Shown here: in pieces, positions 54,603 to 57,293 of the stretch
How positions within the stretch are numbered: the stretch's first letter is position 1
Layout: every line of letters begins with the position of its first letter
Origin: Escherichia coli
GTDB taxonomy: Bacteria > Pseudomonadota > Gammaproteobacteria > Enterobacterales > Enterobacteriaceae
Strand: one strand, 5' to 3'
DNA: 64,000 nt
NCBI RefSeq assembly: GCF_001677475.2
Contig: NZ_CP015229.1
Program-made: the position numbers

Positions 54603-57293
54603 TAAGTTTGTATATTAGAATTCCGGCATCACTAATACGTGCAGATATCCGTGTATACTAGACGTATAAATTGTACAGGAGCACGATATCATGACTGCAA
54701 AACGTACCACACAAAGTGTGACCGTCACCGTCGACCGTGAGTTAGTCAATCGCGCTCGTGATGCAGGCTTAAATATGAGCGCCACCCTTACGGTTGCGCT
54801 CAATGCTGAACTTAAAAAACATGCAGCAACACGTTGGCGTGAAGAGAACACAGAAGCTATCGCTGCGTTAAATCAATTGGCTGATGAAACCGGATGTTTC
54901 TCTGATGAGTACCGGAGCTTCTAGCGATGCAATTTACGGTATACCGCAGTCGCGGCAGGAACGCCGCGTTTCCCTTTGTTATCGATGTTACCAGCGACAT
55001 TATTGGTGAGATTAATCGCCGTATCGTTATTCCATTAACACCTATTGAACGATTTAGCCGTATTCGCCCACCAGAACGGCTTAATCCAATCCTTTTACTG
55101 GTAGATGGCAAAGAATATGTGCTCATGACGCATGAGACTGCAACTGTTCCAGTTAACGCGCTGGGAACGACATTTTGCGATGCCAGCGCGCACCGAACGT
55201 TGATTAAAGGAGCATTAGATTTTATGCTCGACGGGATTTAAGACGCGACCGCCTCTCCCTCACCCATATCTTTATGCCGGTTCGACGGCTGGACAAAATA
55301 CTGTTTATCTTCCCAGCGCAGGCAGGTTAATGTACCACCCCAGCAGCAGCCAGTATCCAGCGCGTAAATACCTTCCGGCGTACCTTTGCCTTCCAGCGAT
55401 GCCCAGTGACCAAAGGCGATGCTGTACTCTTCAGCGACAGGGCCAGGAATCGCAAACCACGGTTTCAGTGGGGCAGGGGCCTCTTCCGGCGACTCTTTGC
55501 TGTACATATCCAGTTGCCCGTTCGGGAAGCAAAAACGCATACGGGTAAAGGCGTTGGTGATAAACCGCAGTCTTCCCAGCCCCCGCAATTCCGGTGACCA
55601 GTTATTTGGCATATCGCCGTACATAGCGTCGAGAAAGAAGGGATAGGAGTCGCTCGACAGCACCGCTTCTACATCGCGTGCGCACTCTTTGGCGGTCTGC
55701 AGATCCCACTGCGGCGTGATCCCTGCGTGGGCCATCACCAGCTTTTTCTCTTCGTCGATTTGCAGCAAAGGCTGGCGACGCAGCCAGTTAAGCAGCTCGT
55801 CGGCATCCGGCGCTTCCAGCAGTGGTGTCAGGCGATCTTTCGGTTTATTGCGGCTGATCCCGGCAAATACCGCCAGCAGATGCAGATCGTGATTGCCCAG
55901 CACCAGACGTACGCTGTCGCCTAAGGATTTCACATAGCGCAGAACATCCAGCGAACCCGGGCCGCGCGCGACCAGATCGCCCGTCAGCCAGAGGGTATCT
56001 TTCCCAGGGGTAAATTCTACTTTATGCAGCAATGCGATCAGTTCATCGTAACAACCATGAACGTCGCCAATAAGGTATGTCGCCATATTCTTTTAATGAA
56101 TGAGTGTGGGAACGGCGAGTCGGAATACGGGAATGTCGATGCTGAAAGGGACGCCATTTTCATCGATCATTTCGTAGTGACCCTGCATGGTGCCCAGCGG
56201 GGTTTCAATGATTGCACCGCTGGTGTACTGGTACTCTTCGCCAGGGGCGATAAGTGGCTGGACGCCAACCACTCCTTCGCCCTGGACTTCGGTTTCACGG
56301 CCATTGCCATTGGTGATCAGCCAGTAACGCCCCAACAACTGCACTGGCGCTCGCCCCAGATTGCGTATGGTTACGGTATAAGCAAAAACGTAACGTTCAT
56401 TATCAGGTGAAGATTGTGCCTCAATGTAGACGCTTTGAACCTGAATACACACTCGGGGCGAATTGATCATCGTTAACTCTCCTGCAAAGGCGCGTTCTCC
56501 GCCAGATAGTTCGCCATCTGGCAATATTGCGCGACAGAGATATTTTCCGCTCGCATCGCCGGGTCGATCCCCATTCCTGTTAACACCTCGACGCTAAACA
56601 GGTTGCCGAGGCTGTTACGAATGGTTTTACGACGCTGGTTAAAGGCTTCGGTGGTGATGCGGCTCAACACGCGAACATCTTTAACCGGGTGAGGCATCGT
56701 TGCATGAGGAACCAGGCGCACGACGGCGGAATCCACTTTGGGTGGTGGTGTAAAGGCTGACGGCGGTACTTCCAGCACCGGGATCACGTTGCAATAGTAT
56801 TGCGCCATGACGCTTAATCGACCATACGCCTTGCTGTTCGGTCCTGCAACCAGACGATTCACCACCTCTTTTTGCAACATAAAGTGCATGTCGGCAATGG
56901 CATCAGTATAGCTAAACAGATGGAACATCAACGGCGTGGAGATGTTATAAGGCAGGTTGCCGAAAACACGCAGCGGCTGACCCATTTTCTCGGCCAGTTC
57001 GCCAAAGTTAAAGGTCATCGCATCCTGCTGATAAATCGTCAGTTTCGGGCCTAAGAATGGATGCGTTTGCAGACGTGCCGCCAGATCGCGGTCAAGTTCG
57101 ATGACCGTGAGCTTATCCAGACGTTCGCCGACCGGTTCGGTCAATGCCGCCAGACCGGGACCGATTTCGACCATCGCCTGGCCCTTCTGCGGATTAATGG
57201 CAGAAACAATGCTGTCGATCACGAACTGATCGTTGAGAAAGTTTTGCCCGAAGCGTTTACGGGCTAAATGGCCCTGGTGGACTCGATTATTCA

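Follow-up and report, generated by a model that had tools for sequence, protein, structure and literature searches.

Two small genes that resemble the antitoxin and the toxin of the F-plasmid ccd system lie between folA and apaH, two core genes, in a stretch of 64,000 nucleotides of Escherichia coli DNA (contig NZ_CP015229.1 of the RefSeq assembly GCF_001677475.2; the whole stretch is called the window in the following). This locus raises the question whether the pair is a chromosomal ccdA/ccdB-type toxin-antitoxin module that has been inserted between two core genes, as had been proposed from the sequence alone, and what such a module might do for its host. By sequence and location, the pair represents the ccdO157 genomic islet, which has already been published, named, and experimentally studied (Wilbaux 2007; Mine 2009), a fact that the reading from the sequence alone had missed. 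The best explanation as a whole, which we regard as quite likely, is that a type II toxin-antitoxin operon was horizontally acquired and became lodged between folA and apaH, and that this islet would, by analogy with the O157:H7 allele, neither stabilize plasmids nor protect the cell against F.

Identity and insertion site of the ccd islet

The population of E. coli genomes was searched with a query of 1.7 kb that spans folA, ccd, and apaH, and this query was matched in 5,425 of the 5,426 complete RefSeq E. coli genomes. In 2,021 of these (~37%), including O157:H7 and UTI89, the match covered at least 80% of the query, and both ccd genes were annotated at the site. Most of the others match with their flanks alone (62% coverage), and folA directly adjoins apaH there; the islet is absent from ~63% of the E. 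coli genomes. A MAFFT alignment with an empty site places the bounds of the insert at about 54619-55237; the shared sequence stops after GTAAnTTTGTATA on the left side and restarts at TTTAAGACGC on the right side. K-12-like empty sites have been described to contain, in place of the islet, a spacer of 77 bp with a repetitive extragenic palindromic (REP) element (PMC7232551, PMC7167474), and the ccd genes of O157:H7 are known as a genomic islet in this plastic folA-apaH spacer, which holds REP or ccd (PMC7167474, PMC3184786, PMC7232551, PMC2654758). The existence of the empty site in other genomes shows that ccd is an insertion. Therefore, the comparison of the folA-apaH interval across E. coli, with annotated copies in more than a third of the genomes and a REP-type spacer otherwise, bears out the proposal that a chromosomal ccdA/ccdB-type module has been inserted between the two core genes.

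The assignment to the CcdA/CcdB family is based on matches of both open reading frames (ORFs) to family models and to solved structures. The antitoxin ORF matches the Pfam family CcdA (PF07362) with an E-value of 4.1e-26 over model positions 2-71 of 71, and the toxin ORF matches the Pfam family CcdB (PF01845) with an E-value of 1.5e-31 over positions 1-101 of 101; these end-to-end matches argue that the ORFs are not chance reading frames. In the PDB, the toxin matches over its full length CcdB of Vibrio fischeri (2kmt, 4.7e-17) and CcdB of the F plasmid (1vub, 2.1e-10). The antitoxin matches F-plasmid CcdA (2adl, 9.4e-6), and this alignment extends over both the QxxTVTVD strand near the N-terminus and the RW..EN...F.DE.R segment near the C-terminus. 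These two parts correspond in the window protein to a ribbon-helix-helix segment at the N-terminus (QSVTVTVD...) and to a segment for the binding of CcdB at the C-terminus (RWREEN...GCFSDEYRSF). The clear resemblance to CcdA and CcdB, which the sequence-only reading had noticed without database searches, was thus found again in Pfam as well as in the PDB. A BLASTP comparison with an IncF plasmid copy revealed 36% identity for CcdB and 30% identity over 70 aa for CcdA, and both proteins match the NCBIfam models for F-type equivalogs significantly, but with scores far below the curated cut-offs (CcdA NF010264, 38.9 versus 100 bits; CcdB NF010262, 60.9 versus 147 bits). As judged from these scores, the pair is a member of the CcdA/CcdB family, but no F-type equivalog. 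The RefSeq names of the two proteins are "CcdA family antitoxin" and "CcdB family protein".

The closest relative that has been studied is the O157:H7 allele. CcdA is identical to CcdA of O157:H7 (WP_000125566.1) at 76 of 77 positions, the difference being T54 versus A54. CcdB is identical to its O157:H7 counterpart (WP_001160975.1) at 101 of 104 positions (97%), and it has G10, E28, and T82 where the latter has S, V, and K, respectively. Over the 632 bp between the folA stop and apaH 10 nucleotides differ, the nucleotide divergence across the islet is 1.6%, and both reading frames are intact.

The coordinates of the features at the site are collected in Table 1. As had been read from the sequence, two small co-directional ORFs of 77 and 104 aa are present, and the ORF list agrees with the gap of 2 nt between them (TAG 54922-54924, ATG 54927). 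The interval that had been flagged, 54606-55241, begins with the base following the folA stop codon and ends with the ccdB stop codon. Shine-Dalgarno-like motifs are found 9 nt 5' of both ATGs (AGGAG 54677-54681 for ccdA, GGAG 54914-54917 for ccdB), and this bicistronic order, with the antitoxin gene preceding the toxin gene on the same strand and a Shine-Dalgarno-like motif on both, is the layout of a CcdA/CcdB-type operon. The genes ccdB and apaH are convergent, and their stop codons overlap by 4 nt (55238-55241). A 204-aa ORF of the ORF list is folA with an upstream extension.

Table 1. Positions, in the 64,000-nt window, of the ccd islet and of the genes that flank it.
Feature	Description	Position	Strand	Basis
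folA	dihydrofolate reductase, 159 aa, left flanking core gene	54126..54605	+	RefSeq annotation transferred by alignment; ORF list
leader	85 nt, presumed promoter/operator	54606..54690	+	sequence; motif scans
ccd islet	~619 bp	54619..55237	+	MAFFT versus O157:H7, LR-28, empty-site genome
ccdA	antitoxin, 77 aa, ATG start	54691..54924	+	ORF list; Pfam; O157:H7 alignment
ccdB	toxin, 104 aa, ATG start, presumed gyrase poison	54927..55241	+	ORF list; Pfam; PDB; O157:H7 alignment
apaH	diadenosine tetraphosphatase, right flanking core gene	55238..56086	-	ORF list; RefSeq annotation; alignment

The GC content of the islet (0.467) is lower than that of folA (0.525) and apaH (0.559), and the GC content at third codon positions is 0.42 in both ccd genes versus 0.58 in folA and 0.62 in apaH. 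The earlier impression of a lower GC content than in the neighboring genes is therefore correct, but the difference is modest. Because 19% of the equal-sized windows within the 64 kb are equally or more AT-rich, the islet is not a compositional outlier. The low GC content, though real, was for this reason not retained as a proof of foreign origin, and the comparison with the empty site is the stronger evidence for an insertion. At the boundary of the islet, the 3' end of apaH (55238-55275) differs in length by an adjoining indel of 6 nt: apaH encodes 282 aa in the window, as it does in the other ccd-carrying genomes that were inspected, whereas its product at the empty site has 280 aa and ends with ...DLGEAAAS.

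The window allele and its genomic background

The exact CcdA sequence of the window is public on at least 1,000 contigs, and the exact CcdB sequence (e.g., ANO87201.1) on 63 contigs. Among the other members of the CcdB cluster G10 and E28 are common, with O157:H7 being the exception at these positions, while T82 is unique to the window allele. It is present in draft assemblies, and one of these, GCA_019136195.1, is 100% identical to the window over 6.3 kb around ccd. In two further drafts with T82, folA and the islet each have 0-1 mismatches to the window, and the kefC or apaH flanks diverge by 0.8-2%. The alignments revealed that the residue equivalent to position 82 is K in O157, Pro in V. 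fischeri CcdB, and E79 in F CcdB. As this position varies among functional CcdB proteins, the exchange K82T is probably tolerated, and we regard it as probably neutral.

A comparison of the region 51927-58241 with three other ccd-carrying sequences (L005, L006, and L003) revealed a mosaic pattern of divergence. The folA gene and the ccd islet contain 0-2 mismatches each, while the flanks with kefC and/or apaH-pdxA differ by 0.8-2.2%. This pattern of a near-identical segment between diverged flanks suggests that a folA-ccd segment of ~1.2 kb may move between chromosomal backgrounds by homologous recombination. A folA copy that is 97.8% identical to that of the window was found in NZ_CP072804.1, a 69-kb E. 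coli record, and it might be a mobilized folA. The host itself belongs to a divergent lineage: over 20 kb of core genes (30000-50000, carB, cai, fix) the best of the 5,426 complete RefSeq genomes is only 98.0% identical. By this measure, the lineage of the window is poorly represented or absent among complete E. coli genomes.

Several further observations were made elsewhere in the window. It opens at the thr leader (Rfam Thr_leader, 191-310), the conventional start of chromosome numbering. A strongly AT-rich block on the minus strand between nhaR and ribF (18214-24637, GC content 0.31-0.41) resembles, in size and sequence, a chaperone-usher fimbrial operon that would encode a subunit (177 aa), a chaperone (227 aa), an usher (816 aa), and a putative adhesin (319 aa); an ORF of 473 aa (23216-24637) lies in the same block, which is probably a known E. 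coli fimbrial islet at the nhaR-ribF site. A type I toxin-antitoxin locus of the hok/sok family is indicated by a match to the Rfam sok antitoxin RNA (15450-15603, minus strand, 117.8 bits versus a gathering score of 59). Matches to the Rfam small RNAs tpke11 (13988-14065) and ES003 (33820-33872) were also found. The 1-kb bins 33001-34000, 46001-47000, and 63001-64000 have low GC contents of 0.40-0.43, compared to a window mean of 0.50.

Regulation, activity, and possible functions

The leader contains one perfect GTATAC palindrome (54653-54658) and three imperfect sites with one or two mismatches, namely GTATAA (54664-54669), GTACAG (54673-54678), which overlaps the palindrome TGTACA (54672-54677), and GTATAT (54610-54615). 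In addition, an 11-nt direct repeat, TGTATAyTAGA, is present at 54609-54619 and 54652-54662. Of the five GTATAC sites in the 64 kb, two lie inside the islet of 619 bp. The F operator has three GTATAC palindromes at its center, of which one is perfect and two are imperfect; CcdA dimers bind them weakly, whereas chains of CcdA and CcdB bind them tightly (PMC5389731), and the F-plasmid sequence has the same GTATAC layout directly 5' of ccdA. In view of this likeness of the leader to F, and of the two of five GTATAC sites in the islet, an F-like autoregulation via the putative GTATAC-type sites is a reasonable inference. The second perfect GTATAC (54939-54944) lies within the first codons of ccdB, where it may serve as one more binding site for CcdA or be present by chance. 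A terminator scan revealed none between folA and ccdA and none after ccdB, and three terminator-like matches inside ccdB are probably due to chance. Read-through from folA into ccd and convergent transcription into apaH are possible.

While gene structure, family, location, insertion boundaries, operator-like motifs, and near-identity to a studied allele are demonstrated at the locus itself, we infer the activity of the window allele from the O157:H7 allele and the Ccd system of F. By this analogy, gyrase would be trapped on cleaved DNA by CcdB dimers that bind the dimerization domain of GyrA. CcdA would wrap its C-terminal tail around CcdB and thereby neutralize the toxin, and the N-terminal ribbon-helix-helix dimer of CcdA, bridged by CcdB, would bind the GTATAC-type sites in the leader and repress the operon. 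CcdA would be degraded by Lon, and a stop in synthesis would consequently set the toxin free.

The sequence-only reading had pointed to the C-terminal residues of CcdB that contact GyrA, and here the result is divided. The C-terminus of the window protein, ...FMLDGI, has kept the terminal Gly-Ile, whereas the equivalent of W99 of the F plasmid is Asp102. This exchange does not discriminate, because the same Asp is present in CcdB of O157:H7. It is also found in CFT073, and V. fischeri CcdB has a Thr at this position. CcdB of O157:H7, with its Asp, has been reported to target gyrase, and its cognate CcdA to be degraded by Lon (PMC5543033). The residue at the W99 position was dropped as a test of activity, since the O157 and the V. 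fischeri toxins, both of which have been studied, also lack the Trp.

The literature on the O157:H7 allele portrays a weak module. According to accounts of Gupta 2017 in three reviews, its toxin is less toxic than F CcdB, has an approximately fivefold lower affinity for gyrase, and contributes to the formation of persisters (PMC10886550, PMC5543033, PMC11059956). The system does not exert post-segregational killing and is unable to stabilize a plasmid (PMC2654758, PMC5543033). In the passages of three reviews that cite Wilbaux 2007, F CcdA is described to neutralize the chromosomal toxin, whereas CcdA of O157 does not neutralize F CcdB, and post-segregational killing by F still operates in O157:H7 (PMC7354431, PMC5543033, PMC3920263). 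One review states, in conflict with this, that the chromosomal O157 CcdA protects against F CcdB (PMC10886550). We followed the majority of the reviews, i.e., those that cite the primary experiment. By analogy with the O157:H7 allele, toxin and antitoxin of the window are probably both active and would form a functional, weakly toxic module. In the chromosome, it is most likely a persisting element of weak toxicity that is for the most part selfish or neutral and that may contribute to the tolerance of antibiotics (persister formation).

Several points weigh against an active module, and most of them also favor the first of the alternatives, namely, that the antitoxin is functional but the CcdB allele with G10, E28, and T82 is non-toxic, so that the locus would be an inert remnant that drifts toward loss. 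Among natural variants, Mine et al. reportedly found in 2009 that ~69% were fully active, while ~29% combined an inactive toxin with an active antitoxin. Truncated and frameshifted CcdB variants occur in the same 90% cluster (P0025, P0028, and P0029). K82T is rare: an exact match to a 57-nt probe centered on codon 82 was found in none of the 2,008 ccd-carrying complete genomes, all of which had at least one mismatch, and this exchange is therefore left with no indirect support for its function. No match to the sigma-70 promoter consensus was found in a scan of 54400-55500, which includes the leader; transcription could originate from a weak promoter of the operon itself or from folA read-through. 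Furthermore, it has been reported that chromosomal ccd toxins evolve neutrally and that the O157 system is decaying within E. coli (PMC3920263, PMC2654758). However, the window toxin gene has an intact frame, its product has full length and matches the Pfam model from end to end, G10 and E28 are shared with many alleles and it is O157:H7 that is exceptional, position 82 is variable among toxins that are known to be functional, and the allele is unchanged in several different chromosomal backgrounds. We therefore regard a decayed module as a tentative alternative that is on balance unlikely, and retain the active, weakly toxic module as the preferred explanation.

A second alternative would be that the module is under positive selection as a stress or persistence module, and that the transient release of CcdB under antibiotic or bile stress generates drug-tolerant persisters. 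Two reviews relate from Gupta et al. 2017 that ccdO157 raises survival under several antibiotics (PMC5543033, PMC11059956), and in the adherent-invasive E. coli (AIEC) strain NRG857c bile salts raise the expression of ccdB at the folA-apaH site 8- to 32-fold (PMC7232551). The retention of the locus in more than a third of the complete genomes would also fit. But the authors of the latter study themselves cautioned that transcriptional induction is no proof of toxin release (PMC7232551), nearly two thirds of the genomes do without the islet, and its patchy presence, the frequent decay of alleles, and the reported neutral evolution of the toxin (PMC2654758, PMC3920263) are at variance with positive selection. 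Such a selected role is thus unlikely, and a weakly toxic element that is largely selfish or neutral remains the favored view.

The T82 allele lies on a folA-ccd segment that is identical or almost identical in at least three E. coli backgrounds, the kefC and apaH flanks of which diverge by 0.8-2%. It might for this reason be no neutral polymorphism, but an actively spreading variant that is transferred by homologous recombination and has an altered toxicity or an altered affinity for CcdA or gyrase, although we regard this as very improbable; if true, the natural alleles would form a series with which selection on chromosomal ccd could be studied. The weakest alternative is the anti-addiction role considered in the sequence-only reading, in which chromosomal CcdA would neutralize F-type CcdB and permit plasmid loss without killing: although this concept was shown for another chromosomal ccd system, as cited in PMC2654758, and has the dissenting review mentioned above on its side, it is contradicted for the near-identical O157:H7 allele by the reviews citing Wilbaux 2007, CcdA shares less than a third of its residues with F CcdA, and both proteins score far below the F-type equivalog cut-offs, so that we give it hardly any credence.

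Comparison with known ccd systems

The F-type copies that abound on plasmids are ~35% identical to the window CcdB. The nearest plasmid-encoded CcdB proteins, which are 60-73% identical, were found on plasmids of Hafnia alvei, Klebsiella aerogenes, Edwardsiella, Salmonella, Enterobacter, and Citrobacter. They are closer to the window protein than the F-type is, but they reside on plasmids and not at the folA-apaH site, and it is plausible from their similarity that this group was part of the donor pool for the islet. No true plasmid with a copy of the islet type of more than 73% identity was found in the plasmid search, and all 2,008 matches of a ccdB fragment in complete genomes were chromosomal. 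The sole "plasmid" copy with 97% identity, CP054241.1, is an 834-kb PLSDB record that also carries apaH, and it was discarded as a probably misassigned chromosome fragment.

The F-plasmid ccd system (PDB 1vub, 3g7z, 2adl, 2h3c) has in common with the window the two protein families, the operon with the antitoxin gene in first position, and the GTATAC-type layout 5' of ccdA. The genes nearly abut in both cases, with a gap of 1 nt in F and 2 nt in the window. The two CcdB proteins share the motifs MQF.VY, D(V)(Q/T)SDII, RR.VIPL, VPV, and the terminal GI. In contrast, the window pair is chromosomal rather than plasmid-borne, has the low identities to F given above, and has an Asp at the position of W99.

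The chromosomal CcdB of V. fischeri (2kmt, 3jsc, 4ely/4elz) is the best-scoring relative with a solved structure, and like the window protein it is chromosomally encoded and lacks a Trp at the position of F W99. The tails of the two proteins are ...LITGI in V. fischeri and ...FMLDGI in the window. It differs in genus and in genomic context, and its identity of ~40%, as estimated by eye, is lower than that of the E. coli chromosomal alleles.

The ccdO157 islet of O157:H7 (strains EDL933 and Sakai) has the same insertion site and boundaries as the window islet, agrees with it in the order and lengths of the genes and in the gap of 2 nt, and differs from it in the residues named above (G10/E28/T82 versus S10/V28/K82 in CcdB, T54 versus A54 in CcdA) and in the host, which for the window is a divergent E. 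coli lineage. The feature is thus already known, and just two traits, the rarity of T82 and the divergence of the host lineage, are slightly out of the ordinary. The window copy of ccd does not raise a new question; it adds one intact allele from a divergent lineage, with one rare substitution, and it matters mainly for correct annotation. In practice, it can serve to mark the plastic folA-apaH spacer and as a candidate for a comparison of toxicity at the level of alleles, within a system, ccdO157, that is a textbook case in the debate whether chromosomal toxin-antitoxin modules are functional or are selfish elements in decay.

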